From Anaerolineae bacterium (lineage in GTDB: Bacteria > Chloroflexota > Anaerolineae > B4-G1 > DUEL01), in the NCBI GenBank assembly GCA_036172315.1, contig JASFBC010000158.1, positions 2,045 through 66,044 of the forward strand: DNA of 64,000 bases, in the 5' to 3' direction. Below, in pieces: positions 15,077 to 55,820 of the stretch; positions within the stretch are counted from its first letter, which is position 1; each line of letters begins with the position of its first letter. The position numbers and the translations under genes are program-made. The notes under the pieces are model-generated. The model was not told the origin of the DNA. It did not search any database and saw nothing but the letters and a program-made list of their open reading frames with translations.

Positions 15077-18000
15077 CTATACGGCTACCGGCAGGGTGAA
15101 GGTAAAGGTGCTCCCTTTGCCCGGCTCGCTCTCCACCCAAATCTGACCGCCCTGGAGTTCCACCAGGTTCTTGGTGATGACCAGTCCCAGCCCCGTGCCC
15201 GGCACATTGCGCACGAGCGGGTGCTGGGAGCGGAAAAACTTGGTGAACAATCGCTCCCGCTCCTCGGGCGCTATGCCGATGCCTGTATCGGAAATGGAAC
15301 AGACCACGAATCCGCCGTTCGGCTGAACGGTCACCCGGATGTGGCCTTCCTCCGGAGTATACTTGTACGCGTTGCTCAGCAGATTGGTCAGAATCTGCAC
15401 CACCCGATTCCGGTCTGCCTGTACGGGGGGTAACGGCTCCGCGATTTCCACCTCCAACGTCTGTCGCCTGGCTTCTATCTCCTGGCGGATGACCCGAATC
15501 GCCTCTTCCACGGCCTCCTGCAGCGCGACCCGCCCAACTTCCAGTCGCAACCGTCCGGCCTCTATACGGGAGATGTCCAGCAGTTCCTGCACCATCGTGT
15601 CCATCCGGTTCACATTGGAGCGGATGACCTCCAGGAAGGAACGCTGGGTATCGGTCAGGTCACCCGCCAACCCCTTGACCACCAGGTCGGTGTACCCCTT
15701 GATGGCCGTCATCGGTTGTTTCAGTTCGTGGGAGACAAAGGAGATGAAATCCGTCTTGGCCTGATTGGCGGCCTCCACCGCCGCAAAGAGGCGGGCGTTC
15801 TCTATAGCAATGGCGGCGTGGTCGGCCAGGCGAACGACAAAGTCCAGGGCATCCTGGTCCAATTTCCCCGGTTTGCTACTCTCCAGCACGATGATGCCGA
15901 TGATCCGTTCCTCCCGCCAGATGGGCACTGTAATCTGGGCGACCATCCCCTCTGCGGCGGCCACATAGTCCGGGTCGCGGCGGACGTCGGAGACCAGTTC
16001 CGGCCGACCGGTTCGGGCTACCCGCCCCACAATGCCCCGATCCAGCGGCCAGAGGGTCTCCCGGTATGGCTCCACCGCATCGGGAGGGTAGCCCTGGGAA
16101 ACCAGGAGCCGGAGGCCCTGCCGACCGTCCTCCTCGGCCAGAACGGCAATTAACCCGACATCTGCACCCGTCCGCTGGATGGCCCATTCCAGGGCCCGCT
16201 CCATCGTTTGCTGGTAGTCCAGGGTGGCGTTCAACTCCCGGTCAATCCGCTGCATCATGGAGAGTTCCTCCACCCGGGCCGCCAGCGCCTGATCGGTCAT
16301 CGCGAAGAGACGGGCGTTCTGGATAGCGACGGCCGCCTGAGCGGCAAAGGCGGTCAACAATCGTTCGTCATTCTCATCGAAGGGGCGACCGTCCCGCCGG
16401 TTGAGCACCTCCAGAACGCCGACGACAGTCCCGGGGGCCCTCATCGGAGCGCAGAGGAGCGAACGGGTGACAAAATGGGAACGGCGGTCTATTTCCGGAT
16501 ACCAGTGTTTGTCCCGCCGGACGTCGTCCACCCGGATGGGGCGGTTCTCCCGAACCGCCTGTCCGGCAATACCGGTGCCGGCGAGGAGGCGGGTACCGGC
16601 CAGGTCAGGCACACCAATGGCGACCTGAAAGACCAGGTCGCCGCTCTCCTCATCCACCAGCAGGAGAGCGCCAGCCTCCGCCTGGAGGAGGTCTACCGCT
16701 TTCCGGACCGTCAGGTCCAGCAATCCATGCGGGTCCAGCGTGGAAGCCAGAAGGTGGCCCACCTCATTCAGTCCTTCCAGTCGCCGCACCCATTTCTCCA
16801 TCTCCTGATACAGGCGGGCTTTGTCCAGGATGGCGGCGGACTGATCGGCGATGACCTGAAATATCCGTACCTGCTCCGGCGTATACGTCACATCGGGATC
16901 AAAACTGGAGATGGTCATCACACCCAGGATGCCACCCTGGGAGATGAGGGGCATGCCCATCCAGGCCTTACCGGGCCGGCCCTCGGGCTGTACACCCCGA
17001 CGCCGGCATTCGGTCAGATAATCATCGGTGACGATGGGCTGTCCCGTGCGGACGATGAGGCCGGTCAACCCCTCCGTATCCGGCCAGACGTCCTCCGGGT
17101 ACTGCCGTTCGCCGTCCTCCACATAAAAGGCGAAGCGCAGGGTACGGGTTGGGGGATCGTAGAGGGCGATGGAGAAATTGCGAGCGTCCAGCACCCGGTT
17201 GGTCTGGGTGTAGATCAGTTCCATCAGGTCGTCTAACCGGACGGAGAAGCCCACGGACTGGGCAATAGTGCCCACCACCTCCAGTTCCTGGACCCGGCGC
17301 TCCAGGTCGGCGATCAGCCGGACCCGGTCCAGCGCGGCGGTAATTTGTGGGGACAGCATCTCCAGGAACCAGGCATCGCGGGCCCGAAAGCGTTCCAGAC
17401 GAGGAGGGCCAACGGTCAGCCAGCCCCATCCAGATAGTGGAACGAACATGGCCGGCCCCAGCGCGGCCAACCGTTCTTCCTCCCCCTCCAGGTCCGACGG
17501 GAGGACGTCATCCACCGAAAGGTAGAGGGGACGGGTATCCCTGCTCATCCGACGGGCCAGTGGTCCATCGGGGCGGAAAGAGGGCAGGGGAGATAATGGA
17601 GTATCCCCCCATACTCGGGGAACGTACAATCCGCTGCGCGGGTCTGAGAGGTAGAAGAGAACCGAACGGGAGGCCAGCACTTTTCCGATCACGTCGGCGG
17701 CGACCGCCATCACTTCGTCCCCGGTACGGGCCGTGGCCGCCCATTTCCCAAACTCCCGCAGGGCCTGTTCCGGCGCCATCCGCCGCCCCAGCAATAGCCG
17801 GTCCACTGCCCGAATCAGAAACCCCTGCAGGGGCATGCTCCCCATCATCACTGCCAGCACCAGCAGGGCCAGCACCAGGGGCTGAAAGGGGAGAACCGTC
17901 AGGGCGAACCACCGGCTCAAGAGGGCGAGGAGAAGGGCGAATATGCCCACAACTACCAGCGTCAGGAGAAGGTAACTTACCGTATTGCGGACCACCCAGT

Positions 18001-19045
18001 CAATGTTCAGCGTGCGGGGGAAGAGGATCGCGTAGGCGGTGGCCAGGGGGAAAAAGACAAAGGACGGCAGAAACAGGCTGGGCTGGAAAGGGAAGCCGGG
18101 GCGGAAAGCAAAAGGAATCCAGACCATAATCGGGAAGAAGGAAAGCAAAGCCCCCAGCAGGACGATGTAGGTCTGGGCGCGAATAATGGGGGAGCGGGAG
18201 AAGAGCCGATAGTAGGCCATCCACCCGATCAGCACCAGTCCGCCGATGCCTGCCCAGGCCCGTCCCCAGCGCCAGGGGGCGAAATAGGCAATGGGGTGGG
18301 CCATGTCCACCGTCGTGAGCCATCCAGCGACCGCCAGCCCCAGCGCGGGCAGGTAGACCAGGAGGCGCAGGGGGGGAAACCGCCGGAGGACGGCGGATGG
18401 GCGAGGGAACACCAGGGCCAGGTGGATCGCGGCGCTTCCGATCAGGGGGATGGCCACCACCCAAACCGGGAAGAGGCGATGGGTGGTATAGACGTCAAAA
18501 AAAGCGCCGGTCATGAGGGCGATGAAGATGCAGAAAAGGGCGAAGACTTGTGCGGATTCCTCCCGGCTCCGTAGCCAGAATATCACCCCTCCGATGGCCA
18601 GGTAGAACAGGCTCAGGGCGTAGGGGATGAGGAAGAACTCCCAGAAGGCCGAGCGGGGAAGCGGCATCAGCATCACCCTGACCTGGCGGACGGTGCCGGT
18701 CTCCCCGTGGCGGGCCGTGAAGGTGACCATCTCGCCGGGCGAACGGTAGCGCAGGGCCTCCACCAGCGCGGTCGGGCTATCCAGCGGCTCCCCGTCTATG
18801 GCGATCAGTTGATCGGGGAAGTGCAGGCCGGCCGCGTGCCCACTCCAGGTCATCCGGCCGAGGTCGTTCACCACCAGTGTCGGTTCGGTGAAGAGGCCCG
18901 GGAAAGGAAGGCGGGCCATCTGGAGGGCCAGCACGAGGGCCCAGACGAGGGTCGCGGCGGAGAGGGTCAGCAGAACCACCAGAAGCCAGCGGGTGACCCG
19001 CAGAAACAAAGGGCTTTCCAGAAAAGCAGAACCCGAATCGGCCAT
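15077..19045 (-). CDS. Multi-domain sensor histidine kinase (PDZ-like + polytopic membrane region, tandem GAF domains, HisKA, HATPase_c)
   Basis: H-box FVSHELKQPMTAI, N-box LLSNAYKYT, G1 DTGIGI, G2 GTGLGL. Several GAF-like blocks and more than 8 hydrophobic helices occupy the N-terminal third. Confidence 0.9.
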   Translation of the reverse strand: MADSGSAFLESPLFLRVTRWLLVVLLTLSAATLVWALVLALQMARLPFPGLFTEPTLVVNDLGRMTWSGHAAGLHFPDQLIAIDGEPLDSPTALVEALRYRSPGEMVTFTARHGETGTVRQVRVMLMPLPRSAFWEFFLIPYALSLFYLAIGGVIFWLRSREESAQVFALFCIFIALMTGAFFDVYTTHRLFPVWVVAIPLIGSAAIHLALVFPRPSAVLRRFPPLRLLVYLPALGLAVAGWLTTVDMAHPIAYFAPWRWGRAWAGIGGLVLIGWMAYYRLFSRSPIIRAQTYIVLLGALLSFFPIMVWIPFAFRPGFPFQPSLFLPSFVFFPLATAYAILFPRTLNIDWVVRNTVSYLLLTLVVVGIFALLLALLSRWFALTVLPFQPLVLALLVLAVMMGSMPLQGFLIRAVDRLLLGRRMAPEQALREFGKWAATARTGDEVMAVAADVIGKVLASRSVLFYLSDPRSGLYVPRVWGDTPLSPLPSFRPDGPLARRMSRDTRPLYLSVDDVLPSDLEGEEERLAALGPAMFVPLSGWGWLTVGPPRLERFRARDAWFLEMLSPQITAALDRVRLIADLERRVQELEVVGTIAQSVGFSVRLDDLMELIYTQTNRVLDARNFSIALYDPPTRTLRFAFYVEDGERQYPEDVWPDTEGLTGLIVRTGQPIVTDDYLTECRRRGVQPEGRPGKAWMGMPLISQGGILGVMTISSFDPDVTYTPEQVRIFQVIADQSAAILDKARLYQEMEKWVRRLEGLNEVGHLLASTLDPHGLLDLTVRKAVDLLQAEAGALLLVDEESGDLVFQVAIGVPDLAGTRLLAGTGIAGQAVRENRPIRVDDVRRDKHWYPEIDRRSHFVTRSLLCAPMRAPGTVVGVLEVLNRRDGRPFDENDERLLTAFAAQAAVAIQNARLFAMTDQALAARVEELSMMQRIDRELNATLDYQQTMERALEWAIQRTGADVGLIAVLAEEDGRQGLRLLVSQGYPPDAVEPYRETLWPLDRGIVGRVARTGRPELVSDVRRDPDYVAAAEGMVAQITVPIWREERIIGIIVLESSKPGKLDQDALDFVVRLADHAAIAIENARLFAAVEAANQAKTDFISFVSHELKQPMTAIKGYTDLVVKGLAGDLTDTQRSFLEVIRSNVNRMDTMVQELLDISRIEAGRLRLEVGRVALQEAVEEAIRVIRQEIEARRQTLEVEIAEPLPPVQADRNRVVQILTNLLSNAYKYTPEEGHIRVTVQPNGGFVVCSISDTGIGIAPEERERLFTKFFRSQHPLVRNVPGTGLGLVITKNLVELQGGQIWVESEPGKGSTFTFTLPVAV

Positions 19046-19084
19046 CCGATACTCCGCCCGGCAGGATCATTTAAACAGGCTTAC

Positions 19085-19121
19085 ATAATACAAATTGTAG
19101 CATATTATTGTCAAACGTCAA
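19085..19121 (-). promoter_or_regulatory. Candidate overlapping sigma-70 promoters for the histidine kinase
   Basis: On the minus strand: TTGACG-16-TACAAT and TTGACA-18-TATTAT, in a short AT-rich patch 40-75 nt upstream of ATG 19045. Confidence 0.4.
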
Positions 19122-19130
19122 CGTAACTAG

Positions 19131-19416
19131 CAGCCCGATGGAGATCGCCCTCTTGGCGCCGATGGGGGAATCGGCCTCCCTCCCGCAGACCACAGACGGC
19201 GTGGTCCTCACCCCACCCCCGGCGGCTTCGCCGCCGGGGGAGGGGTGAGGAAATAGCGGTTCGCCCGGCCTGCCGGTGGCCTCTGAAACCCGCGGGAGGG
19301 TAGGCAATTACCGGCGGTGGTCGGTGGCCTGTCATCTGTCGTCCATCTGGAAAGGACGGCGCAGGCTGTCCAGAGGCTCCAGGCCCAGGGAGGCTGACTT
19401 TCCGTCAGCGTTGAAT
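19131..19416 (+). repeat. R1 family, long copy carrying a nested about 105-bp insertion
   Basis: Collinear with 179-350 except for an extra segment at 19207-19311, which is flanked by CGGCGTGGTC / CGGCGGTGGTC. Confidence 0.8.
19206..19250. repeat. R3 hairpin (CCTCACCCC ... GGGGTGAGG) inside the nested insertion
   Basis: CCTCACCCC-ACCCCCGGCGGCttcGCCGCCGGGGGA-GGGGTGAGG, a nearly perfect long hairpin. Confidence 0.8.
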
Positions 19417-19497
19417 AGTTACGACAGGATGTTAAAAAACCCTTCCCCCATCACCCGATGGCGGGCACAGGCGACCGGAGGGCCGACGTCTGAAGCC

Positions 19498-20538
19498 TCA
19501 CCCTCTCCCAAACAGTGCCCAGGAGACCCCGAGAGCCAGGCCGGTATTGAAGAGGGTCGCAGCCAGATAGACGGCCAGAGGGCGCAGGCCGATTTTGCGG
19601 AACTCGCCGAAAGCCAGGTCCCAGCCGATGCCAATGAAAGCCAGTGTGAAGGCCCAGTTGCGCAGCGCGGTGATGTCTTTGACCTGGGCCTTTGTGAACA
19701 CCCCTACCGATGCCAATACCGAGACCAGCATAAAGCCCAGGACGAACTTGGGGAAGCGGTCCCAGAGCACCTGTGCGCCGGGGCGCCCGGCCCCCGCCCG
19801 CTCCTCCCGCGCGACCCAGTAGAGAGCCAGCAGGAAGGCAACCACACCGATAAGGGCGTTCTGTGCCATCTTGACAATGGAGGCGACCCGGACGGCTTCC
19901 TCGCCATAAATAGCCCCCGCGCCAACAACAGCGGCGGTGGTATCTATGTTTCCACCGAACCAGGCCCCGGCCCACCCTGCGGGCATCCCGGCGAGGGCCG
20001 CGATCCAGGGCATCAGCACCATCATCGGCAGCGCGATGATGATAACCAGCGCGGTCACGTAGGCCAGATGCTCCTTCTTGGCCAGAATGGACCCGGCGGC
20101 CGCGATGGCCGCGGAGACGCCGCAGATGGAAACGGCGGCGCACATCACCGCCCGTAGTTTTTTCTCTAACTGAAGTACCTCGCCCAGCCACCAGGTGAAA
20201 AGGAAGACCAGGCTCACCATGACCAGGGCCTGGACCAGCCCCCGAAGACCCACGCTGAGTACCTCGGTGATGTTCACCCCGACTCCCAGCAGGACCAGAC
20301 CAACCTTGAGGAAGAGTTCGGTGCGGAATACCGCCCCCAGTTTCTCTTTGACCTTCAGTCCGCTGGCGATGCCGTTCGCCGCCAAACCCAGCACGGCAGC
20401 CCAGAGGGGATATTCCAGAGCCTTCGGACTGTGGGATGCCAGGCGGTTCGCAGCCAGGGCCAGGAGACCCAGCAGGAGGGCCGAAGCAAATCCCCACAGA
20501 ATCCGTCCGCTGGAGGGTACGGAAGTTATGCTGGTCAT
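19498..20538 (-). CDS. YeiH/UPF0324-family membrane protein (putative sulfate exporter, PSE family)
   Basis: 346-aa polytopic protein with family-typical segments (..FLKVGLVLLG.., ..AVSICGVSAAIAAA.., ..GNIDTTAAVVGAG..). Confidence 0.75.
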   Translation of the reverse strand: MTSITSVPSSGRILWGFASALLLGLLALAANRLASHSPKALEYPLWAAVLGLAANGIASGLKVKEKLGAVFRTELFLKVGLVLLGVGVNITEVLSVGLRGLVQALVMVSLVFLFTWWLGEVLQLEKKLRAVMCAAVSICGVSAAIAAAGSILAKKEHLAYVTALVIIIALPMMVLMPWIAALAGMPAGWAGAWFGGNIDTTAAVVGAGAIYGEEAVRVASIVKMAQNALIGVVAFLLALYWVAREERAGAGRPGAQVLWDRFPKFVLGFMLVSVLASVGVFTKAQVKDITALRNWAFTLAFIGIGWDLAFGEFRKIGLRPLAVYLAATLFNTGLALGVSWALFGRG

Positions 20539-20551
20539 TGGGTTCTCCTCC

Positions 20552-20683
20552 TCACCAGGGAACAGGGCTCAACACGCCCAGGAGAACCAGGGCGATCAGG
20601 AGAAATCCCAGGATGACGGCCCACCAGTCCTCGCTTAGGCGCAGAAAGGACGACTCCCGCCTTCTGATCGCTTTCTCCTCCAT
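20552..20683 (-). CDS. 43-aa single-TM peptide, translationally coupled to the exporter gene
   Basis: [43 protein letters not shown]. It is below the ORF-track cutoff. A purine-rich RBS lies upstream. Its stop is embedded in the GAGGAGGAG RBS, 13 nt before the yeiH-like ATG. Confidence 0.45.
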
Positions 20684-20727
20684 GAAACCCCCTTTCCTTT
20701 ACCAGGGTGACCTGGCTGTCGAGCGTT

Positions 20728-20755
20728 GTTATAACCCAATTTCTCCCTCTGCCAA
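20728..20755 (-). promoter_or_regulatory. Candidate promoter for the small ORF and exporter
   Basis: Minus strand TTGGCA-16-TATAAC. Confidence 0.35.
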
Positions 20756-20861
20756 CAGAGCATGCCGGCCAGGGCTTATCAAACGGTATGTGCAACCCAA
20801 CCCGACTTGTCCGGGAGGTTTCCTGCCGGTGGCGTTGCCGCCGACAGAGAAACCGCTTGGC

Positions 20862-22910
20862 CTATGCCATCTGCTGTGCCACCAGTTCCACCACGTCCAT
20901 CACCCGGACGCGCAGTTTCTCCTGCCGGGCCGCGCCCGCCAGCGTCCGCTTGCACTGCTGGCAGGCGGAGAGGAGAATCTTCGCGCCGGTGGCCTGGACC
21001 TCGCCGATGCGCCGCCGTGCGACGGCCGCAACCAGGTCTTTATCCGCCATCTCCACATCCCCGCCGCCACCGCAGCAGAGGGAGTACTGGTGGTGATGCT
21101 CCATTTCCACCAGTGTGACGCCGGGGATCGCCCGGATGACCTCCCGGGGCGCGTCGTACACCCCGCTGGTCCGCCCCAGGTCACACGGGTCGTGGTAGGT
21201 GACCGGCTCCTCCAGGGGCCTCAGTGGGACGCGCCCCTCCATCAGGAGTTCCGCCAGCAGTTCCGTCAGGTGGAGGACCTCAAAACCCAGGGGCTCGCCC
21301 AGGATGCGGGGGTAATCGTGTTTCCAGGTATGGTAACAGGAGGGGCAGGCCGCGACCAGCCGCCGCGCCCCCGTTCGGCGGACGGCCTCCCGGTTGTGGC
21401 GCATTGCCTCCACTGCCACGTCCCCCATTCCGGCGATGATCAGCGGGAAGCCGCAGCACCACTCCTCCCCGCCCAGCGTCAGGTAATCCACCCCGGCTTT
21501 CTCCAGCACCTGCACCGCGTTCTGCGGGATGGAGTAGGACTGGGGATAAAAGGACGCGACGCAGCCGACAAAGTAGACCACTTCGGCCCGTGTCTTCCTG
21601 CCGACCCCCTCCGGGATCTCGGGCAGGTTCTGGCTCCAGATAAGCCGGTTCGTGTTGTCGTCGCCGGAGATGTTGTGGTGGGTCAGGAAGGTCTCCCGGA
21701 GACGGTCAAAGACCGCCGGATAGACCCCCTGCCGGACCAGGTCCTGGCGCATAGCGATCCAGAGTTCGCGGGTCTGGATGTGGGCCGGGCAGACAACGGC
21801 ACAGCGCCCGCAGAGGGTACAGTCATATGTGCCGGCAGCGTGGGTCTGGAGGGCTTCCGCTTCGGGAGGATGGGGGCCAAAGAGGCGGGCCCACAGGCCA
21901 AACTGCCCCCGAACGAACCACCGCACCGCCTCAATCTTGCGCAGCGGCGTGATACCGTCCAGGTCCGGTTTCTCGGTGAAGGTGGGACACCACAGGACGC
22001 ACTCGCCACAGCGGGTGCAGGCATCCAGCGCTATCAGTTGGTGGAAGGTGAAGAGGGAAAGGTCAGGCCGGGACTGGGCAGTTCCTCCTGCAATCATGGC
22101 CCCTTCAGGCTGCACCCCGCTCATCGTCGCCATCAGGGCCGTGGCAACGGCGTGTAGAAACTTGGAGTAAGGGATGGTGACGATGACAACGGATGTCAAC
22201 AGGCCGTGGCCCAGGAAGAACGCGTCGGCAAGGGCCTCCCAGGGCAGGTCCCATCCGGCGACCAGGCGGGCGAGGTGGTAGCCGATGAAGGCCATATACG
22301 GGGCGGGGCCATCGTAGCCAGCGTTCAGGCGGACGATCTCAGTGATCCAGCCGGTCAACAGGATCAGCCCCAGCCCCAGAACCATCCAGGTGTCCATAGA
22401 GCCAGTGCGGAGTTGGGCGGGGCGGGCCAGGTAGCGGCGAAAAACGTAGAAGAGCAGGCCCGCTATCATCATTGTGCCGCCTATCTCGTTCAGGAGAGCC
22501 GTGACCGGATGATCGGCGGTGTACCACATGGAAATCCAGGGGATGTGCCCAAGATGAAACAGGTGGTAGAGAACCTTCTCTGAGAGGGCGGCCAGGCCGG
22601 AGAGGGTCATCAGAAGCAGGAATCCGTTCAAGAGGAGAAAATGGCTCAGCCACCGCCAGCGGCTGGTCCGCCAGAGGCGGCGGTTGAACCATGCCTCGGT
22701 GAGGAAGGCCTTCAGGATGAAGGGGAGTTGGCGGCTGAAGATGGCCCGCAACGTCCTGCCCAACAAAACGAGAAACTTTCGTCCGGTAGAGGCAGTGTGG
22801 ACGCCTTCCATCCGTCCCTGGAGCCAGATGCCCACTCCATCCGCCAGTCCGATCAGGAAGAGGACCATAAGGGGAAGATGGACGACCCAGAAAAGGGTTT
22901 CAATATTCAC
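20862..22910 (-). CDS. Membrane-anchored heterodisulfide-reductase-like protein: NarI/DsrM/HdrE-like polytopic domain fused to an HdrD/DsrK-like Fe-S/CCG domain
   Basis: The first about 280 aa are His-containing TM helices. They are followed by CTRCGECVLWCP and CTLCGRCAVVCP, then CCG motifs EEWCCGFPL and YSLCCGGGGD. GTG 22910 with GGAGG-N6 is preferred; ATG 22961 is possible. Confidence 0.8.
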   Translation of the reverse strand: MNIETLFWVVHLPLMVLFLIGLADGVGIWLQGRMEGVHTASTGRKFLVLLGRTLRAIFSRQLPFILKAFLTEAWFNRRLWRTSRWRWLSHFLLLNGFLLLMTLSGLAALSEKVLYHLFHLGHIPWISMWYTADHPVTALLNEIGGTMMIAGLLFYVFRRYLARPAQLRTGSMDTWMVLGLGLILLTGWITEIVRLNAGYDGPAPYMAFIGYHLARLVAGWDLPWEALADAFFLGHGLLTSVVIVTIPYSKFLHAVATALMATMSGVQPEGAMIAGGTAQSRPDLSLFTFHQLIALDACTRCGECVLWCPTFTEKPDLDGITPLRKIEAVRWFVRGQFGLWARLFGPHPPEAEALQTHAAGTYDCTLCGRCAVVCPAHIQTRELWIAMRQDLVRQGVYPAVFDRLRETFLTHHNISGDDNTNRLIWSQNLPEIPEGVGRKTRAEVVYFVGCVASFYPQSYSIPQNAVQVLEKAGVDYLTLGGEEWCCGFPLIIAGMGDVAVEAMRHNREAVRRTGARRLVAACPSCYHTWKHDYPRILGEPLGFEVLHLTELLAELLMEGRVPLRPLEEPVTYHDPCDLGRTSGVYDAPREVIRAIPGVTLVEMEHHHQYSLCCGGGGDVEMADKDLVAAVARRRIGEVQATGAKILLSACQQCKRTLAGAARQEKLRVRVMDVVELVAQQMA

Positions 22911-23007
22911 AAAGCACCTCCGTAAAGTGCGATGAGAAGCGCAGATGGCGCGCCAAACCATCCTCCCGGCTGTCCAGAGCCTTCAGGAGCCATAACAGCA
23001 CGCTGGG

Positions 23008-23439
23008 TTAACCCAGAAGGTTCTTGTACTTCACCGCTTCCCCCTCTATGAACGCGCGGAATTCAGGGGAGTCCGCCCGGAAAAGGTTATCCAGTTCTGC
23101 CGGGTTGGACATCTCAATCCGGACCAGCCATCCCTGATCAAAGGGGGACTGGTTGATGAGAGAGGGCTCAAATTCCAGTTCCTCGTTGACGGCGACGATT
23201 TTGCCGCTGACGAGCGCAGGGACGCGCCCAACCCACTTGCCCGATTCCATAGACATAAAGGTCTGGCCCTGGGTCACGGCCTTCCCCACCGGGGGGATTT
23301 CCACGTAGACAATCTCTTTGGCGATGCGTTGACCGAAGTCGGTCAGGCCCTGGACGATGGTATTGCCCTCCACCCGGGCCCAATTGTGCTGTTTGTCGTA
23401 GTAGAGGTCGTCGGGGAATTCAATACCGGCGATCTGCAT
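23008..23439 (-). CDS. GcvH-family lipoyl-carrier protein (orphan; glycine-cleavage H or LbpA-like)
   Basis: ..HNWARVEGNTIVQGLTDFGQ..IVYVEIPPVGKAV..FMSMESGKWVGRVPALVSGKIVAVNEEL..PSLINQSPFDQGWLVRIE. The lipoyl-Lys context (ESGKW) is retained. RBS is GAGGAGG. Confidence 0.85.
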   Translation of the reverse strand: MQIAGIEFPDDLYYDKQHNWARVEGNTIVQGLTDFGQRIAKEIVYVEIPPVGKAVTQGQTFMSMESGKWVGRVPALVSGKIVAVNEELEFEPSLINQSPFDQGWLVRIEMSNPAELDNLFRADSPEFRAFIEGEAVKYKNLLG

Positions 23440-23509
23440 GACGTACCTCCTCGTGGAGTTTGTTGGTTAAGAGCCCCGCCGCGCAACTACCTACCAGGCA
23501 GTGGTTTAG

Positions 23510-23552
23510 CCCTCACCCCCTTCGGCGAAGCCGCTGGGGGTGGGGGTGAGGG
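23510..23552. repeat. R3 hairpin copy
   Basis: CCCTCACCCCC-ttcggcgaagccgctgggggt-GGGGGTGAGGG, followed by GAGGAAGGGTAGG as in other copies. Confidence 0.75.
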
Positions 23553-23618
23553 AGGAAGGGTAGGTGGTTGTAGAAGTTTGCCCGATTCCTCTCGTCCACC
23601 AGGCCTATGAAGTATGGA

Positions 23619-23646
23619 ATTATATCCCGATATGCCAAATTGTCAA
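23619..23646 (-). promoter_or_regulatory. Consensus-grade sigma-70 promoter reading toward the GcvH-like/Hdr-like genes
   Basis: Minus strand TTGACA (23641-23646), a 16-nt spacer, then TATAAT (23619-23624). This implies a leader of about 170 nt containing the R3 hairpin. Confidence 0.55.
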
Positions 23647-23760
23647 GCACAGTCGGCTGGTATTCGGACGTGAGTTAGGACATAGGGCTGGTGGGGTATC
23701 TTCATCCCCCCAGCAGCGCGCAACGTTGAACTTGACCCCCAGGGCATTCAAGGATATATG

Positions 23761-23812
23761 GCTGTCCTCTGACCGAAGGCCCAAAGAGGCGGGCTTTCCG
23801 TCAGTGCTGAAT
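23761..23812 (+). repeat. R1 family, 3' module only
   Basis: GGCTGTCCTCTGACCGAAGGCCCAAAGAGGCGGGCTTTCCGTCAGTGCTGAAT matches the R1 3' end. Confidence 0.7.
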
Positions 23813-23833
23813 GTTAAAACGGAGCGCGGGAGG

Positions 23834-23862
23834 TTGCGCCCCTGACCATTGTCGGGTACAAT
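23834..23862 (+). promoter_or_regulatory. Candidate promoter for the lipoprotein gene
   Basis: TTGCGC-17-TACAAT, 28 nt before ATG 23890. Confidence 0.4.
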
Positions 23863-23889
23863 ACGGCTATCCTTTCCGGGGAGAACAGG

Positions 23890-25044
23890 ATGCCCGAACC
23901 TCCGTTCCTGGTCCGTTTGCATTCCACCCGGTGCATTGGAAATGCCGGGCATCTTCTCTTCCTGTTTGCTACTGCGCTCCTCCTGGCGGCCTGTTTCCCT
24001 CTCTCCCCGTCCCCCGCTCCAACCTGTCCGCCTGCTGCCCTGGTCACCTGCACCCCTGCACCGCCGTCCCTCTGTACCCCGGCCCCTTCTATCCCGCCGA
24101 CGGCCGCTCCGACGCCCCTGCCGCCCGAACCGGCCGCCATTCAGGCCACGATAGAGGCGGGGACATCCTATGCCGCTCGCGCAGGCATCCGGCCCCTCTG
24201 CATGCGCCAGGAGAACACCGACGATGACCCCGACCCGGAATGGGTGGGACTCTATCTCGCTTCTAGCGACCCTCCCCGCTTGCAGGGATTCGTCCTGGAC
24301 GGCCCGAATCGGCATGACCTGATCCCTCCCGAGAGCGAGGAGAGCAAGGGGCTGGGCGAGTTTCCGACCTGCGAACTGGAAGTCCGGGACCTGAACGCCG
24401 ATGGGCGGACGGAGATCATCATCTGGGGACACACTCAGGCAGGCGCAACGCTTCTCCATATTTTTGCCTGGGATGGCCGACAGTACGCCCTGGTGGCCGG
24501 GTTTGAGGGGAAAGGCGGCATCCGCCTGGAGAATCGGGACGGAGACCTGACAGATGAAGTGGTTGTCCGCTGGAGGCCCGAAGGCGACCTGGTGTGGGAG
24601 GTCATCTACACGTGGGACGGCGCCCATTACGCCTGGACCTGGGACCGATACGCCTGGTTCTATCTGGACCGCCCCCATGCTTATCCCGATGACACCCCTA
24701 TCCATGCGCTGGCCTCTTTCTACCTGGCACTGAATGACCGGGACCTCCCGATGGCGTACCGGATGCTCTCTCCGGCCGCCCAGTCGGTCCGGACCTACGA
24801 GGACTGGGTGTTAGGGTTCGCCACCACGTTGGGGGTAGAAGTGGGGGCGGTACGGGTAGTCGCGCAGGAAGGAGAGCGGGCTACCGTCGCTGCGCAGGTG
24901 CGAGCCCTGGATAATGTGGACGGTCGGGTTATCGCCACAGTGTACGCCGTGGAGTGGCAGATGGTACGCCTTGGGGGGAGTTGGCGGCTGGATAGGGGGG
25001 CGGCGGAGATGCTGGAAAGGTGGGAGGCTCGCTACTATCCGTGA
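23890..25044 (+). CDS. Hypothetical lipoprotein with Pro/Thr-rich linker and an FG-GAP/VCBS-like motif
   Basis: Signal with lipobox LLLAAC, a PT-rich linker, and DLNADGRTEIIIWG. I recognise no family for the C-terminal half. Confidence 0.6.
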   Translation: MPEPPFLVRLHSTRCIGNAGHLLFLFATALLLAACFPLSPSPAPTCPPAALVTCTPAPPSLCTPAPSIPPTAAPTPLPPEPAAIQATIEAGTSYAARAGIRPLCMRQENTDDDPDPEWVGLYLASSDPPRLQGFVLDGPNRHDLIPPESEESKGLGEFPTCELEVRDLNADGRTEIIIWGHTQAGATLLHIFAWDGRQYALVAGFEGKGGIRLENRDGDLTDEVVVRWRPEGDLVWEVIYTWDGAHYAWTWDRYAWFYLDRPHAYPDDTPIHALASFYLALNDRDLPMAYRMLSPAAQSVRTYEDWVLGFATTLGVEVGAVRVVAQEGERATVAAQVRALDNVDGRVIATVYAVEWQMVRLGGSWRLDRGAAEMLERWEARYYP

Positions 25045-25050
25045 AAACCT

Positions 25051-25140
25051 GTTCTGATGCCATTCCGCTTCGCTGTGGGGCTCACTGCTCGTAGTGAGGC
25101 CCGGAGCGCCGCGAAGGGCCGTTCTGATGCTCCAGCCGCT
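25051..25140 (+). repeat. R2 dispersed repeat (dimeric copy)
   Basis: GTTCTGATGCCATTCCGCTTCGCTGTGGGGCTCAC..GAGGCCCGGAGCGCCGCGAAGGGCCGTTCTGATGC.. is shared with 32249-32345 and 50277-50313. Confidence 0.7.
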
Positions 25141-25188
25141 ATTTTCTGGCCCGCAGGAATGCGCCCCGCGCGATGGGGTACCATCGGG

Positions 25189-25216
25189 TTGCGTCCTGGC
25201 GAAAATGGGGCATAAT
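25189..25216 (+). promoter_or_regulatory. Candidate thyX promoter
   Basis: TTGCGT-16-CATAAT, about 30 nt before GTG 25246 (RBS GGAGG). Confidence 0.3.
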
Positions 25217-25245
25217 AGGCGGCAAGTGATGCCCGGAGGCACACT

Positions 25246-25899
25246 GTGGAAGTGGAACTGATCGCCATCACTCGCTACCTGAAAGGGGACGGGAGTCCGG
25301 AGGCCCTGCTGGAGCACGCCGGGCGGGTCTGCTACCGGAGCGAGAGCCGGGGCGACCCGGCGGCCTTTCTGAAGGCCCGCATCCGGGAAGGACATGAGAG
25401 TCTCATTGAGCATGCCTCGGCGACCTTTGAGATTCGCGGCATCTCCCGCGCCTGCAGCCACCAACTGGTCCGCCACCGCATCGCTTCCTACTCTCAGGAG
25501 AGCCAGCGGTACGTCTCTATGGAGGACCCCGAATGGGTGCTGCCCCCGTCCATTCTCCAGGACGAGGAGGCGCGCGCCCTCTGGGAGCAGTTTGCCGCCC
25601 GGGTGAAGGAGACGTACCGCGCGCTGCGGGCGCGGGGAATCCGGAAAGAGGATGCCCGCTTCGTCCTGCCCAATGCGACCGCGACCCGCATCGTCGTCAC
25701 GATGAATTTCCGGGAACTGCGGCACGTCTTCCGGCTGCGCATCTCACCGGAGGCCCAGTGGGAAATCCGGGAGGTCGCGGTGCAGATGCTGGAGGCCGTC
25801 TACCCCTACGCGCCCGCCGTCTTCGGTGACCTGCGAGACGACCTGCGTCGCCGGTATCCGGAATTCTTTGACCATCGGCCACCAACCGTTGACAACTGA
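25246..25899 (+). CDS. thyX: FAD-dependent thymidylate synthase
   Basis: ThyX signature RHRIASYSQESQRY, plus HESLIEHA. The start codon is GTG. Confidence 0.9.
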   Translation: MEVELIAITRYLKGDGSPEALLEHAGRVCYRSESRGDPAAFLKARIREGHESLIEHASATFEIRGISRACSHQLVRHRIASYSQESQRYVSMEDPEWVLPPSILQDEEARALWEQFAARVKETYRALRARGIRKEDARFVLPNATATRIVVTMNFRELRHVFRLRISPEAQWEIREVAVQMLEAVYPYAPAVFGDLRDDLRRRYPEFFDHRPPTVDN

Positions 25900-32273: not shown

Positions 32274-32345
32274 CGGTTTGATAAAGCACGGAGCGCCGGG
32301 AAGCGCCGTTCCGATGCCCCTCCGCTGCGGGCTGACTACGAACGC
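32249..32345 (+). repeat. R2 dispersed repeat (dimeric copy) spanning a gene boundary
   Basis: CCCCTCCGCTTCGCTGCGGGGCTGAC..GCACGGAGCGCCGGGAAGCGCCGTTCCGATGCCCCTCCGCTGCGGGCTGACTACGAAC. It supplies the last codons of one gene and the first codons of the next. Confidence 0.7.
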
Positions 32346-35121
32346 TGGAGGCAAAGTGCCCGAGCGTCGTCTGTATTGGGTAGGAATGTCGCTGGTTTTG
32401 CTGACGGCGGCCGCGTTGCGCCTGGTGGCGATTCCCCATCTCCCCATCGGCCTGCACTACGACGAAGCCGCCAATTACATCCTGACCCGGGGGATCGCGT
32501 ACGAGGGATACCGCCCCCTCTTTATTAGCGCGTACACCGGCAAAGAGGTGCTGTTCTTCTATCTGGGCGCGCTGTGGCTCCGGCTGGTCGGGGGAGCGCC
32601 CTGGGTCCTGCGGCTGAACGGGGCGGTGATCGGCCTCCTGGCCGTCGCCGCGACGGGGGCCGCCGCCCGCGCCCTGGGAGGGCCGGGACCGGAGGGCCGC
32701 CGGATCGCCCTCTTCGCCGCCGCCGGGATGGCGGTCCTCCTCCCCCATGTCATCCTCAGCCGCTATGGCTTCCGCGCCGTCTCCCAATCCCTGATGGAGG
32801 CGCTGACGGTAGCGGCCCTCTGGCGCGCCCTCCGAAGGGGGCGGTGGCTGGACTCCCTGGCCGCCGGGCTCTTCCTGGGGCTGACCGGTTACACCTATCT
32901 GGCCGCGCGGCTTTTCCCCATCCCCCTGGCCCTGGCGATGATCTGGCTGCTCCTGCGTACCCCCGGCCCGGCACACCGGCGGTACCTGCTCCGGCTCACC
33001 GTCGTCCTGGTGGCGGCTCTGGTGGTCTTCGCCCCGCTGGGACTCTACTTCCTCCGCAACCCCCAGGCCTTTTCCGTCCGCGCCTCCCAGATCGCCGCTC
33101 CGACATGGCGGGAGGTACTGGACGGATTCTGGCGCTGCGCCCTCGGGCTGGGCCGGCCCAGCCGGGGAGACCCGGGAGTCCGTTTCAACGTCGCTCCCCA
33201 TCCTGTGCTGGAGTGGCCCCTGGCCCTGCTGGCGCTGGCGGGCTTCCCGCTCCTGTTCATCCGCCGTCCGGCAGACCCGCCGACCTCGGCCGCGCGCCTC
33301 TTCCTCCTGCTGGTCATCCCGGTCATGCTCCTGCCCAGCGCGCTGGCGACACGGGACGGCGTCCCCAACCACATGCGCCTGGTAGGTGTCTACCCGTTTC
33401 TGGTTATCTTTCCGGCAGTGACGCTTTCGGAATTCGCTCGCCGTTTTCCGGCCCGCCTCTGCTCCTTCGCAGGGGTGCTGGCCCTGCTCTTCCTGCTGGG
33501 CTGGAACGGCGCCGTCACAGGGGACCACTATTTCCGCTGGGCCCGCTCCCCCGCCCTCTTTGATGCCAACGACGGGGACATGGTGCTCCTGGCCCAGACG
33601 CTGGACCGGTTAGACCTGGAAGGCACCACGGCCTATGTCGCCTCCGTCCACTATCGGCATCCGACAGTGGCGGCGCTTTCCCGGAGGTACGGTCAGGTCA
33701 AATGGCTGACGGGCGGCGCGACGCTGGTTCTTCCTCCCCAGGGCGGCGCGGTCTACCTGGTGCCCGTGACGGCCCAACCGCCATTCCCCTGGCCGGAGTG
33801 GCTCTCTTCCCGGTGGTCAGTGGAGGAACTCCGCGACCCCTTCGGGCGGCCTGCCCTCTGGGTCTACCGTCTCCCGGCCGATGTAGTGGCCGCGCTGCGG
33901 CCGAAGGAGCCGCCTGCCGCCGATTTCGGCCACGTCGTCTGGGTTCACGGCGCGGCCCCGTTGACGCCGGGGTGCGCGGCGGGCGGGCCCTGCGGGGTGC
34001 TGGTGATCTGGGAGGTACGGGCCCCCTACCCGGCGCTCCAGCCCGTCGTCCGCCTGACCCACCCGCAGACCGGCGAGTGGGCCCGCGTCCATCCCTTCCA
34101 CTACCCGACCGGAGAGTGGACGACGGGGGATGTGGTGCTGGACCAGCAGATTCTGAGGCCGTCGCCTGGCGCGCCGCCGGTAGACGGCTATGAGGTCGCC
34201 GTGGGATTCTTCCACCCGGACACGCTGGAGGTCCTCCCCCGCGTGGGGCCCGATGAAGAGTTCGCCGGACTGGAGGTCCGGTTTCCCTTCGGGGCGCTGA
34301 AGCCGCCGGAGGCAGGGGCTTCCGGGGCACTCCCCGCTTCCTGCCGCCCCGCGCCGGAGCCGGCGGAATGGGAGGGAGTCCGGCTTCTGGGGTGGTCGTC
34401 GTTGCCGTCGTCCCTCCGGCCCGGGGAGCGGCTTTCGCTGACCCTCTGCTGGCAGGCTCTCACCGCGCCCCTGCCCGACCGGACGGTCCGCTTCTGGCTG
34501 GAGGGTCCGCAGCGGATTTCCCTGTATGAAGATGCCCCGGTGTACGGCCACCTCCCGTTCTCCGCGTGGTCGGTGGGGATGATGGTGGAGGACCGGCTGA
34601 CCGTCCACCTGCCCCGGGAGATGCCGCCGGGAGAGTACCGGGCTCATATCGCGATCGGTCCGGCAGACCCGGTTATACTGGGAACGCTCTCGGTTTCCCC
34701 TGTGGAGCGCACATTTACTGCCCCTTCCTTTCCGCATCCTCTGGAGGCGAATTTCGGCGGGCAGATTCGTCTCCTGGGATACGAGATGGGAGAAGTCCAG
34801 GCAGGACGGCCATTCTCGCTGGTCCTCTACTGGCAGGCGCAGCAGGAGATGGAGGAGGACTATACCGTCTTCGTCCATTTGCTGGACCCCCAGAGTGGCG
34901 CCATCCTCACACAGGTTGACGAAATGCCCGTTCACGGGACATATCCGACCTCCCTGTGGGTGGCGGGGGAGGTGGTGCGGGATGAACATATCCTCGTCCT
35001 GCCCGCGCTGGCGCCGGGGCGATACTCCCTGCGGGTGGGGCTGTATCTAAAGGAGACAGGCCAGCGGCTGCCCGTCGGCAATGGGAATTTTCTGTTACTG
35101 CCGCTGGAGGTCCTCAGGTGA
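32314..35121 (+). CDS. GT-C fold glycosyltransferase (family 39/83, ArnT/PMT-like) with long C-terminal extracytoplasmic extension
   Basis: First-loop motif LHYDEAANY, about 12 hydrophobic helices, then about 500 aa of soluble sequence. The start is uncertain (32278, 32314 or 32386). Confidence 0.7.
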   Translation: MPLRCGLTTNAGGKVPERRLYWVGMSLVLLTAAALRLVAIPHLPIGLHYDEAANYILTRGIAYEGYRPLFISAYTGKEVLFFYLGALWLRLVGGAPWVLRLNGAVIGLLAVAATGAAARALGGPGPEGRRIALFAAAGMAVLLPHVILSRYGFRAVSQSLMEALTVAALWRALRRGRWLDSLAAGLFLGLTGYTYLAARLFPIPLALAMIWLLLRTPGPAHRRYLLRLTVVLVAALVVFAPLGLYFLRNPQAFSVRASQIAAPTWREVLDGFWRCALGLGRPSRGDPGVRFNVAPHPVLEWPLALLALAGFPLLFIRRPADPPTSAARLFLLLVIPVMLLPSALATRDGVPNHMRLVGVYPFLVIFPAVTLSEFARRFPARLCSFAGVLALLFLLGWNGAVTGDHYFRWARSPALFDANDGDMVLLAQTLDRLDLEGTTAYVASVHYRHPTVAALSRRYGQVKWLTGGATLVLPPQGGAVYLVPVTAQPPFPWPEWLSSRWSVEELRDPFGRPALWVYRLPADVVAALRPKEPPAADFGHVVWVHGAAPLTPGCAAGGPCGVLVIWEVRAPYPALQPVVRLTHPQTGEWARVHPFHYPTGEWTTGDVVLDQQILRPSPGAPPVDGYEVAVGFFHPDTLEVLPRVGPDEEFAGLEVRFPFGALKPPEAGASGALPASCRPAPEPAEWEGVRLLGWSSLPSSLRPGERLSLTLCWQALTAPLPDRTVRFWLEGPQRISLYEDAPVYGHLPFSAWSVGMMVEDRLTVHLPREMPPGEYRAHIAIGPADPVILGTLSVSPVERTFTAPSFPHPLEANFGGQIRLLGYEMGEVQAGRPFSLVLYWQAQQEMEEDYTVFVHLLDPQSGAILTQVDEMPVHGTYPTSLWVAGEVVRDEHILVLPALAPGRYSLRVGLYLKETGQRLPVGNGNFLLLPLEVLR

Positions 35122-44177: not shown

Positions 44178-44285
44178 CTTTCTCCTCCTCATCTGGATTT
44201 GGATTGGATGGTTAACACAAAGGGTTGGGAACATTTTCCGGCTTCACCGATAGGCATCACCTCCTTCCCGAGAAGAATCGGAGAA

Positions 44286-55765: not shown

Positions 55766-55820
55766 GTTAGTGCCAATCCGTTTCTTTTTTTCACGCTTCG
55801 CGTCTGCGAAAGGAGCCGCT

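Follow-up and report, generated by a model that had tools for sequence, protein, structure and literature searches.

A lipoylatable GcvH paralogue encoded beside a membrane NarI/HdrD-type enzyme in Anaerolineae and other bacteria

Why should a gene for a carrier resembling the H protein of glycine cleavage (GcvH) stand directly before one for a membrane-bound relative of heterodisulfide reductase (Hdr)? The question is raised by a 64-kb stretch of contig JASFBC010000158.1 from an Anaerolineae bacterium of the Chloroflexota (this whole stretch is called the window below), where a GcvH-like gene is followed on the minus strand by a gene encoding, in one polypeptide, a NarI-like membrane domain and an HdrD-like domain. 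The original prediction, made from the DNA alone, had described the two as a minimal module in which a lipoylated protein is the substrate of the membrane enzyme. Comparison with related loci strongly supports the view that a lipoylatable paralogue of GcvH and the membrane NarI/HdrD-type enzyme belong together functionally, since their adjacency is conserved across phyla, and the carrier is assigned by its sequence to a class of its own.

The carrier and the membrane enzyme of the window

The pair comprises the following genes, domains and junction:

23008-23439, minus strand: GcvH-like gene, 143 aa, from the list of open reading frames (ORFs)
20862-22961, minus strand: fused Hdr-like gene, 699 aa when counted from the ATG
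22104-22910, minus strand: NarI-like cytochrome b membrane domain (Pfam Nitrate_red_gam, invariant His residues, AlphaFold2 model)
22074-22075, minus strand: fusion junction, where one base is missing (the T of the relatives' hdrD ATG), joining the narI-like and hdrD-like frames
21714-22046, minus strand: HdrC-like ferredoxin domain with two CX2CX2CX3CP motifs (Pfam Fer4_8/Fer4_17)
20862-21581, minus strand: HdrB/HdrD-like domain with two complete CCG motifs (two Pfam CCG matches, 4.4e-33)

The ORF list and Pfam placed both ferredoxin motifs, both CCG motifs and all four genes of the original prediction (the pair and two genes 3' of it, treated below) where they had been predicted. The Hdr-like gene probably starts at a GTG at 22910, yielding a protein of 682 aa, as a GGAGG precedes this codon by 6 nt and the protein would then begin like its homologues, which start MNxETLFW.

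The carrier matched Pfam GCV_H (1.9e-36), and its Lys68, encoded by the AAG codon at 23236-23238 within MESGKWVGR, aligned with the lipoyl lysine of GcvHs in the PDB; the carrier would accordingly be lipoylated on this residue. It shares the GCV_H fold family, the lipoyl lysine in a hairpin and approximately 40% sequence identity with GcvH from E. coli and Thermus (1ONL), but has GKWVGR instead of VKAxSD as well as a C-terminal extension. The sequence around the lysine, ESGKWVGRVPAL, does not conform to the canonical ES[VT]K[AST][AV]S[DE]..Y.P motif, which was replaced likewise in 44 of 44 module copies. Among these copies E65, G67, K68 and G71 of the ESGKWVGR motif were invariant, and S66, W69, V70 and R72 nearly so. 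The GcvHs of E. coli, Thermus, Thermotoga and M. tuberculosis instead carry ES[VT]K[AST][AV][SA]D followed by Y-A-P, so that the residues following the lipoyl lysine in canonical GcvH (SD and YAP) are replaced in what we here call the GKW class.

Profile searches and pairwise scores gave a similar picture. The carrier passed the cut-off of the GcvH subfamily model PRK01202 of NCBIfam (132 bits, cut-off 117) and fell below that of the gcvH equivalog TIGR00527 (100.2 bits, cut-off 115.85). Canonical GcvHs from distant phyla scored 110-141 bits against E. coli GcvH, compared to 71-97 bits for the window carrier against them. In a representative library of 1.84 billion proteins, the best full-length matches all belonged to the GKW class, with VKA-class proteins starting at approximately 108 bits, and the two motif classes were discrete. 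The pattern E[ST]GKWVGR[VIL] was found in 432 stretches in 185,579 species genomes, 422 of which were GcvH relatives; GKW-class proteins are named "glycine cleavage system protein H" in public annotation.

A second relevant comparison is LbpA, a GcvH-like lipoate-binding protein that is an essential partner of the sHdr system and is defined by two strictly conserved Cys residues, one N-terminal and one C-terminal (PMC6067878). The lipoyl lysine is strictly conserved in LbpA, as is K68 here, but the carrier lacks both conserved Cys and has its own ESGKWVGR motif; the window protein contains no Cys at all and the module copies contain none or one. Judged by motif and score, the GKW class is thus an H-protein class distinct from both canonical GcvH and LbpA.

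The representative library also contained GcvH-like domains devoid of the lipoyl lysine. P0241 (1391 aa, encoded outside the window) contains three of them, fused to a GlcD-like part of the flavin adenine dinucleotide (FAD)-oxidase type, two ferredoxin motifs and two CCG motifs, and its CCG part is very similar to the HdrD domain of the window (VTYHDPCDLGRTSG, CPSCYHTW, SACQQCKRT). This is a Rosetta-stone-like link of the GcvH fold to the HdrD family, although the domains are non-lipoylatable. In P0274 (571 aa) a Lys-less domain is fused to a GAF-histidine kinase, and in P0338, P0256, P0270 and P0299 such domains form tandem repeats. These latter proteins suggest that the GcvH fold has been put to further use in binding or sensing.

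The membrane domain of the enzyme was predicted to contain about five transmembrane (TM) helices, with long helices at residues 4-30, 85-119, 136-163, 172-197 and 225-267 of the AlphaFold2 model. Residues 150-276 matched Nitrate_red_gam (1.9e-6; 28.1 bits, cut-off 22.9), and the earlier suggestion that this His-containing polytopic domain is kin to haem-b subunits was borne out, as it was NarI-like by both Pfam and fold. His91, His236 and His254 were invariant, and His12 and His135 were conserved in at least 90% of the sequences. The ferredoxin domain (Fer4_8, 1.4e-10) is predicted to hold a pair of cubane [4Fe-4S] clusters; its motif cysteines (C299, C302, C305, C309, C365, C368, C371 and C375) were invariant in 25 homologues. 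So were all ten CCG cysteines (C451, C486, C487, C523, C526, C577, C613, C614, C651 and C654), which are predicted to form two non-cubane [4Fe-4S] sites, the proposed site of thiol/disulfide chemistry.

The AlphaFold2 model had a predicted local distance difference test (pLDDT) value of 82.7 and a predicted template modelling score (pTM) of 0.82. In Foldseek it matched EtfD from M. smegmatis (9OJN) over the full length (E 2.5e-24, TM-scores 0.70/0.65), followed by LutA and HdrB chains (TMt 0.61-0.66 for HdrB), and EtfD was also the best PDB match by sequence (1.8e-34). Scores to the NCBIfam models of DsrK (91 bits, cut-off 400), TmcB (90, cut-off 735) and HmcF (75, cut-off 750) were far below the cut-offs, as were those to GlpC, LdhH and TfrB, which argues for the enzyme forming its own subfamily. 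There was no curated HdrD model among its NCBIfam matches, and HdrB models matched only weakly.

The single polypeptide had been presented as a property of the system. It holds for the window and is a local event there: the closest relatives (L001, L090, L015, L094, L095 and L099; approximately 85% nucleotide identity) have, by DNA alignment, two genes with a 14-nt overlap, encoding a NarI-like protein of 281-282 aa and an HdrD-like protein of 404 aa. The junction reads cccaTgtccc in these six loci and cccagtccc in the window, a 1-nt deletion. A sequencing artefact was ruled out: the same base is missing from two independent assemblies, L092 and L098, which shows the fusion to be real, and fused forms recur among more distant homologues at 50-80% identity. 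In another set of close relatives (L016, L093, L096, L097, L100, L108, L113 and L124), with GcvHs 71-93% identical, gcvH and hdrD are separated by a different, longer gene of approximately 2.4-3 kb, the NarI-like part of which shares only about 26-30% identity with that of the window. The membrane partner has thus been exchanged within this clade, with little change in gcvH and hdrD.

Conservation of the pairing and other partners of the carrier

A profile built from the fused homologues yielded 80 species-level Hdr loci, 41 of which were informative, with an Hdr protein at least 44% identical and at least 1 kb of flanking sequence on both sides. A GcvH-like gene was found within 3 kb of the NarI/HdrD gene in 34 of the 41, within 400 bp in 29, and within 6.4 kb in the same cluster in 37. 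It almost always shared the strand of the enzyme genes, whether it lay 5' or 3' of them or separated the narI-like gene from the hdrD-like one. Anaerolineae, Syntrophaceae along with further Thermodesulfobacteriota, and Brocadiia all contribute paired loci, so that the pairing proposed for the window recurs across phyla. Hdr homologues at approximately 35% identity in the same orders, including some Syntrophaceae, were mostly without a GcvH gene and appear to form a separate paralogous group.

The neighbourhood extends to a lipoate-protein ligase (LplA) gene, which in 22 of the 41 informative loci follows the pair immediately, within 3 kb; its 348-aa product matched Pfam LplA-B_cat (2.9e-37) as well as Lip_prot_lig_C. 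One Brocadiia locus also carries a radical-SAM gene. Canonical GcvH partners were, on the other hand, rare in tblastn searches of related sequences, with GcvP in 0 of 166 and GcvT in 1 of 166. Likewise, no gcvT, gcvP, lpd, Mvh, HdrA or electron-transfer flavoprotein (ETF) gene was found among the 34 window ORFs scanned with Pfam, which include nearly all of at least 200 aa, and E. coli GcvT, GcvP and FixAB as tblastn queries gave no match in the 64 kb; the original prediction had also reported gcvT, gcvP and lpd to be absent. No EtfA/EtfB homologue was matched by E. coli FixA/FixB (tblastn, E at most 1e-4) in the window and 165 loci totalling 2.1 Mb, a search that could miss very divergent ETFs. 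The carrier gene is thus unlinked to gcvT and gcvP and linked to Hdr-type genes and a ligase, in contrast to canonical gcvH.

The module proved to be less minimal than proposed, as the carrier gene of relatives lies inside several larger clusters. In the nearest relatives the gene order is hdrB-like, hdrA, mvhD, mvhG, mvhA, gcvH, narI, hdrD. L090 (3511-9717), which has the most similar carrier (96% identity), shows this order with the 43-aa gene and yeiH described below after hdrD; its hdrA, mvhD and mvhA were called as short fragments (a 47-aa FlpD, and a large subunit of 321 + 84 aa), which could reflect decay of the hydrogenase/Hdr cluster or frameshifts in the assembly. In many GKW-carrier loci lplA is directly 3' of gcvH, and in L105 the order is gcvH, lplA, hdrC, hdrB and a split hdrA, with a fused NarI/HdrD gene following mvhA on another contig of the same genome (L009). 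The HdrA genes near the carrier are of the large, multi-ferredoxin, Mvh-associated type. Syntrophaceae have the order GntR/FCD regulator, GlcD-like, GlcF-like (CCG), gcvH, hdrD, narI, lplA.

Six Anaerolineae loci contain genes for a PsrABC-like molybdenum enzyme, NrfD and NarJ between gcvH and hdr, and in these the NarI domain is fused to a multihaem cytochrome c. The multihaem cytochrome c-NarI gene replaces the plain NarI-like gene in L017 (3332-13094) and L029 (7094-21975) and also in L019, L034, L035, L047 and L069; in loci of the L017/L029 type, cytochrome b561 and UbiA genes are also inserted between gcvH and hdrD, and HdrB/C/A genes follow the ligase. Most partner sets (hdrB, GlcF-like, hdrD) include a CCG-domain subunit, with the Psr-like set lacking one.

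A different context was seen in three distant loci from Brocadiia and Candidatus Desulfacyla, where TusA-ThiF-DsrE-DsrF-DsrH-TusA genes stand directly beside fused Hdr-GcvH genes (L087, 7454-12502; L075, 9977-21960; L085, 10001-15508). The Brocadiia are represented by anammox-related metagenome-assembled genomes, and L075 additionally encodes a radical-SAM protein and LplA. From their gene content these loci are possibly a sulfur-relay version of the module. None of the Anaerolineae loci, nor the window, yielded a TusA, DsrE or DsrH gene.

The upstream region and flanking genes

The following features surround the pair:

23619-23646, minus strand: promoter TTGACA-16-TATAAT for the gcvH-like/hdr-like pair, sigma-70-type consensus, from the promoter scan
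23440-23618, minus strand: predicted 5' untranslated leader of about 170 nt, between the promoter and the gcvH-like start
20552-20683, minus strand: gene for a 43-aa peptide with a single TM helix, its stop codon overlapping the yeiH ribosome-binding site
19498-20538, minus strand: YeiH/UPF0324 membrane protein, 346 aa (Pfam Cons_hypoth698, 5.9e-54)

The predicted promoter before the pair was recovered with 12 of 12 consensus positions, in a scan that gave 5 sites across 5 kb as against a mean of 1.0 in shuffled sequences. A riboswitch or other leader RNA was considered for the 5' leader and rejected, as an Rfam scan of 19000-25500 gave no match there and only weak chance miRNA/sRNA matches at 19.2 kb. 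Nucleotide homology to the nearest relatives spans only from approximately 19470 to 23473, with the 5' limit at about 23451-23473, such that the promoter and leader lie outside it, and mvhA stands 5' of gcvH in the relatives where the window has the promoter region. The window lineage has thus lost the Mvh/Hdr genes altogether and acquired in their place a new upstream region with a consensus promoter.

The 43-aa gene is present in L090 at the same length (79% identity) and also in L093, L095 and L097, and yeiH is syntenic in L090, L092, L095 and L097, being limited to the Thermoflexus-like clade. An exact 45-mer of the window is shared with metagenome-assembled genomes labelled Thermoflexus sp. 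and Anaerolineae. Both were considered as general parts of the module and rejected, as none of the 80 Hdr loci (L009-L088) carries them and they are confined to the nearest clade; their suggested linkage to the pair consequently shrinks to immediate relatives. At its threshold the scan also gave no promoter-like site in the interval from the Hdr stop codon to the 43-aa ORF, although the two genes had been credited with a candidate promoter of their own. The YeiH protein scored 100 bits against TIGR00698, below the cut-off of 232.6, and "sulfate exporter" is a family name for a putative function.

Directly after yeiH comes a gene for a 1322-aa GAF-GAF-GAF histidine kinase (15077-19045), just 5' of which two overlapping strong promoter-like sites (11/12 and 10/12) are found at 19085-19121 on the minus strand. 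GAF/histidine-kinase genes are also found near the Hdr gene in several relatives, e.g. L004, L006 and L009. Elsewhere in the window, ORFs of 947 and 954 aa (32278-35121 and 42393-45257) have coding-like composition and no Pfam match at 1e-5, a 2000-aa ORF spans 55770-61772, and the ORF at 7315-8424 matches baeRF families 10/2/3 (bacterial archaeo-eukaryotic release factors), whose members are seldom characterised.

A possible disulfide shuttle and its alternatives

HdrDE of Methanosarcina is a methanophenazine:CoM-S-S-CoB oxidoreductase, acting on the heterodisulfide of coenzymes M and B (CoM and CoB), and DsrMK, HmeCD, TmcBC and HmcEF are related modules. CCG-domain Hdr proteins are widespread in bacteria that make neither CoM nor CoB, and few physiological thiol/disulfide substrates other than DsrC have, to our knowledge, been assigned to them. 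The enzyme of the window resembles the HdrDE/DsrMK type in joining a NarI-type cytochrome b to an HdrD part that contains two ferredoxin motifs together with two full CCG motifs. Enzymes of this type act on a disulfide or trisulfide, either CoM-S-S-CoB or DsrC, and are coupled to the quinone or phenazine of the membrane, and the same is proposed here. In contrast to HdrDE, however, the host is bacterial (Chloroflexota) and the proposed substrate is a lipoyl protein, and, unlike for DsrMK, there is no adjacent dsrC.

We slightly favor the view that carrier and enzyme form a lipoyl-protein:menaquinone oxidoreductase, with the carrier as the electron shuttle from one CCG-domain enzyme to another. 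The dithiolane of the lipoyl/dihydrolipoyl group would be the disulfide/dithiol substrate of the two CCG sites in the cytoplasmic HdrD-like domain, from which electrons would pass through the two cubane clusters to the NarI-like haem b domain and on to, or in the reverse direction from, the membrane quinone pool. Like CoM-S-S-CoB or DsrC, the carrier would act as a protein-bound disulfide shuttle between soluble CCG enzymes and the membrane enzyme. With potentials of about -290 mV for lipoyl and about -75 mV for menaquinone, oxidation of dihydrolipoyl-GcvH with quinone reduction would be favored, and energy might be conserved through a redox loop. The retention of all ten CCG cysteines, as in catalytic HdrB, counts in favor of the predicted disulfide chemistry. 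The proposal as a whole draws support from the conserved adjacency, the ligase genes, the distinct carrier class and its recurrence with other CCG enzymes, the fold matches, the scarcity of rival partners (EtfA/B, GcvP, GcvT) in the searched loci and the LbpA precedent.

More tentatively, GKW-class lipoyl-GcvH may be a general protein-bound "heterodisulfide" of non-methanogen Hdr systems. In such a cycle the carrier would be reduced at the HdrB site of an electron-bifurcating MvhADG-HdrABC complex, or by GlcDF-like or other CCG dehydrogenases, and re-oxidised by the membrane NarI/HdrD enzyme with menaquinone. A related thought has been voiced for Culexarchaeia, where a GcvH gene lies in an Ehe hydrogenase/HdrBC/HdrA2B2C2 cluster in an organism without CoM/CoB synthesis, and where the authors speculated that GcvH carries the disulfide for HdrB (PMC9723716). 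That host is archaeal, GcvH is accompanied there by a membrane group 4 hydrogenase and soluble Hdr in place of a NarI/HdrD quinone enzyme, and the link was made as a passing suggestion without a survey, motif analysis or ligase link (PMC9723716).

Several observations weigh against a lipoyl-protein:menaquinone oxidoreductase. No LplA gene was found in the window or in the loci of the nearest relatives. Close fused homologues in L009-L012 and L014 have no adjacent GcvH gene, with one found elsewhere in three of these genomes. In approximately one third of the GKW-GcvH loci only LplA and/or HdrABC are encoded within 6 kb, which means that the carrier gene can do without the membrane enzyme as a neighbour. 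The haem content of the membrane domain is uncertain, since only three of its His residues are invariant, and the three TusA/DsrEFH loci described above point to sulfur trafficking more than to plain redox shuttling. Finally, the non-cubane sites of EtfD and the electron-transfer flavoprotein:menaquinone oxidoreductase EMO purely transfer electrons (bioRxiv 10.64898/2026.08.18.745454), and CCG motifs are therefore no proof of thiol chemistry.

The best-surviving alternative, which we nevertheless regard as rather unlikely, is that the pair is a membrane-anchored relative of sHdr-LbpA, in which the lipoyl arm carries sulfane sulfur (as persulfide or trisulfide) from sulfurtransferases, the enzyme oxidises or reduces it against quinone, and YeiH exports the oxidised sulfur anion. 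The resemblance is considerable: in Hyphomicrobium denitrificans and Thioalkalivibrio (Cao et al. 2018, PMC6067878), too, a GcvH-like carrier is encoded with CCG Hdr-type proteins and its own lipoate-protein ligase, and in type II sHdr a NarI/HdrD-type membrane protein (EMO) ties the system to menaquinone. The sulfurtransferase genes beside Hdr-GcvH in Brocadiia and Desulfacyla, the PsrABC-like, NrfD and NarJ genes of the six Anaerolineae loci and the syntenic yeiH-family genes in the clade of the window would also fit, and the sulfur-oxidation module considered in the original prediction keeps some ground in the three distant loci. The constant company of sulfurtransferases in sHdr-LbpA systems and the EMO of type II clusters (PMC11094781) speak for it as well. 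However, neither TusA and DsrE nor sHdrA/sHdrH or EtfAB genes were found in the window or Anaerolineae loci. LbpA clusters are recognised by shdrC1B1AH plus C2B2, or B3-etfAB-emo, with TusA/DsrE; Pfam scans and tblastn of the window returned no hdrA/B/C cluster genes, etfAB, TusA or DsrE. The carrier also lacks the two LbpA cysteines, the membrane enzyme is here the direct neighbour of the carrier, the nearby HdrA is the Mvh-linked, multi-ferredoxin type, and the exporter label of YeiH is a family name with TIGR00698 below cut-off. The study of Thermoflexus hugenholtzii reported no complete sulfur module (PMC8129789).

It is improbable that the enzyme is an EtfD/EMO-type or other quinone reductase with a donor other than the H protein, alongside which gcvH-lplA travels as a lipoate-assembly cassette for unrelated or regulatory reasons. 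EtfD (PMC13083937) and the EMO of Syntrophus aciditrophicus (bioRxiv 10.64898/2026.08.18.745454) are ETF:(methyl)menaquinone oxidoreductases that likewise combine, in one chain, a NarI-like domain with haem b, a pair of cubane clusters and a CCG domain, and EtfD is the best sequence and fold match of the window enzyme. Electron transfer alone would fit non-cubane clusters of that kind, gcvH-lplA with or without radical-SAM resembles lipoate-assembly gene sets (PMC10332631), and GcvH-like domains devoid of the lysine, joined to a GlcD/HdrD-like protein or a histidine kinase, show that the fold can take on roles other than that of a carrier. Yet the identity to EtfD is only 22%, and the closest relatives of the window enzyme are encoded by two genes. 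The distal non-cubane cluster of EtfD/EMO is degenerate and not catalytic (bioRxiv 10.64898/2026.08.18.745454), and in the alignment the first CC position is occupied in EtfD by just one Cys, whereas the window enzyme keeps both, along with all ten CCG cysteines, and the lipoyl lysine of the carrier is invariant. The tblastn search of the window and of 2.1 Mb of related loci brought up no EtfA/B homologue; the conserved neighbour is instead the lipoyl carrier, an adjacency that survives many rearrangements of gene order across phyla, and the Hdr homologues without GcvH in the same orders (approximately 35% identity) point to a separate paralogous group.

Least probable of all is that the carrier is a working glycine-cleavage H protein whose membrane enzyme replaces the L-protein (Lpd) and passes glycine electrons to menaquinone, as the original prediction had allowed: the PRK01202 match, the database names, the lack of lpd in the window and the peptide-based life of Thermoflexus (PMC8129789) speak for it, but the gene is never beside gcvP and beside gcvT in one of 166 sequences, SD and YAP after the lysine are replaced, TIGR00527 failed, scores to canonical GcvHs are lower than those among themselves, the dedicated ligase and Hdr/Mvh neighbours are left unexplained, and the KO (KEGG Orthology) table of T. 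hugenholtzii JAD2, a species other than that of the window, lists a separate gcvH-gcvPA-gcvPB cluster as well as an mvhAGD-hdrA2B2C2 cluster (PMC8129789).

The statement that no characterised example of the pairing is known held for this module, with sHdr-LbpA, type II sHdr-EMO and the Culexarchaeia speculation as precedents. In the literature pairing GcvH or LbpA with HdrD or Chloroflexi, no prior description was found of the GKW carrier class paired with a complete-CCG membrane enzyme and ligase, or of this class heading hdrCBA operons. Already known are thus sHdr-LbpA, type II sHdr-EMO, the remark on Culexarchaeia and the structures of single-chain NarI/HdrD proteins; new are the Cys-free GKW class (approximately 420 species), the conserved pairing, the dedicated ligase and the place of the carrier gene at the head of hdrCBA operons.

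The finding provides a recognisable carrier class (E[ST]GKWVGR, in approximately 420 species genomes) that is encoded with membrane and soluble Hdr-type enzymes and its own ligase, and whose proposed function is directly testable. If the proposal of a lipoyl-based shuttle is true, a systematic annotation error ("glycine cleavage system protein H") would be corrected, and protein-bound lipoate would gain a third role besides 2-oxoacid/glycine metabolism and sHdr sulfur oxidation. Were the carrier moreover the general "heterodisulfide" of non-methanogen Hdr systems, bacteria would possess a complete, energy-conserving disulfide cycle resembling that of CoM-S-S-CoB in methanogens, and the physiological substrate long sought for their Hdr homologues would be known.

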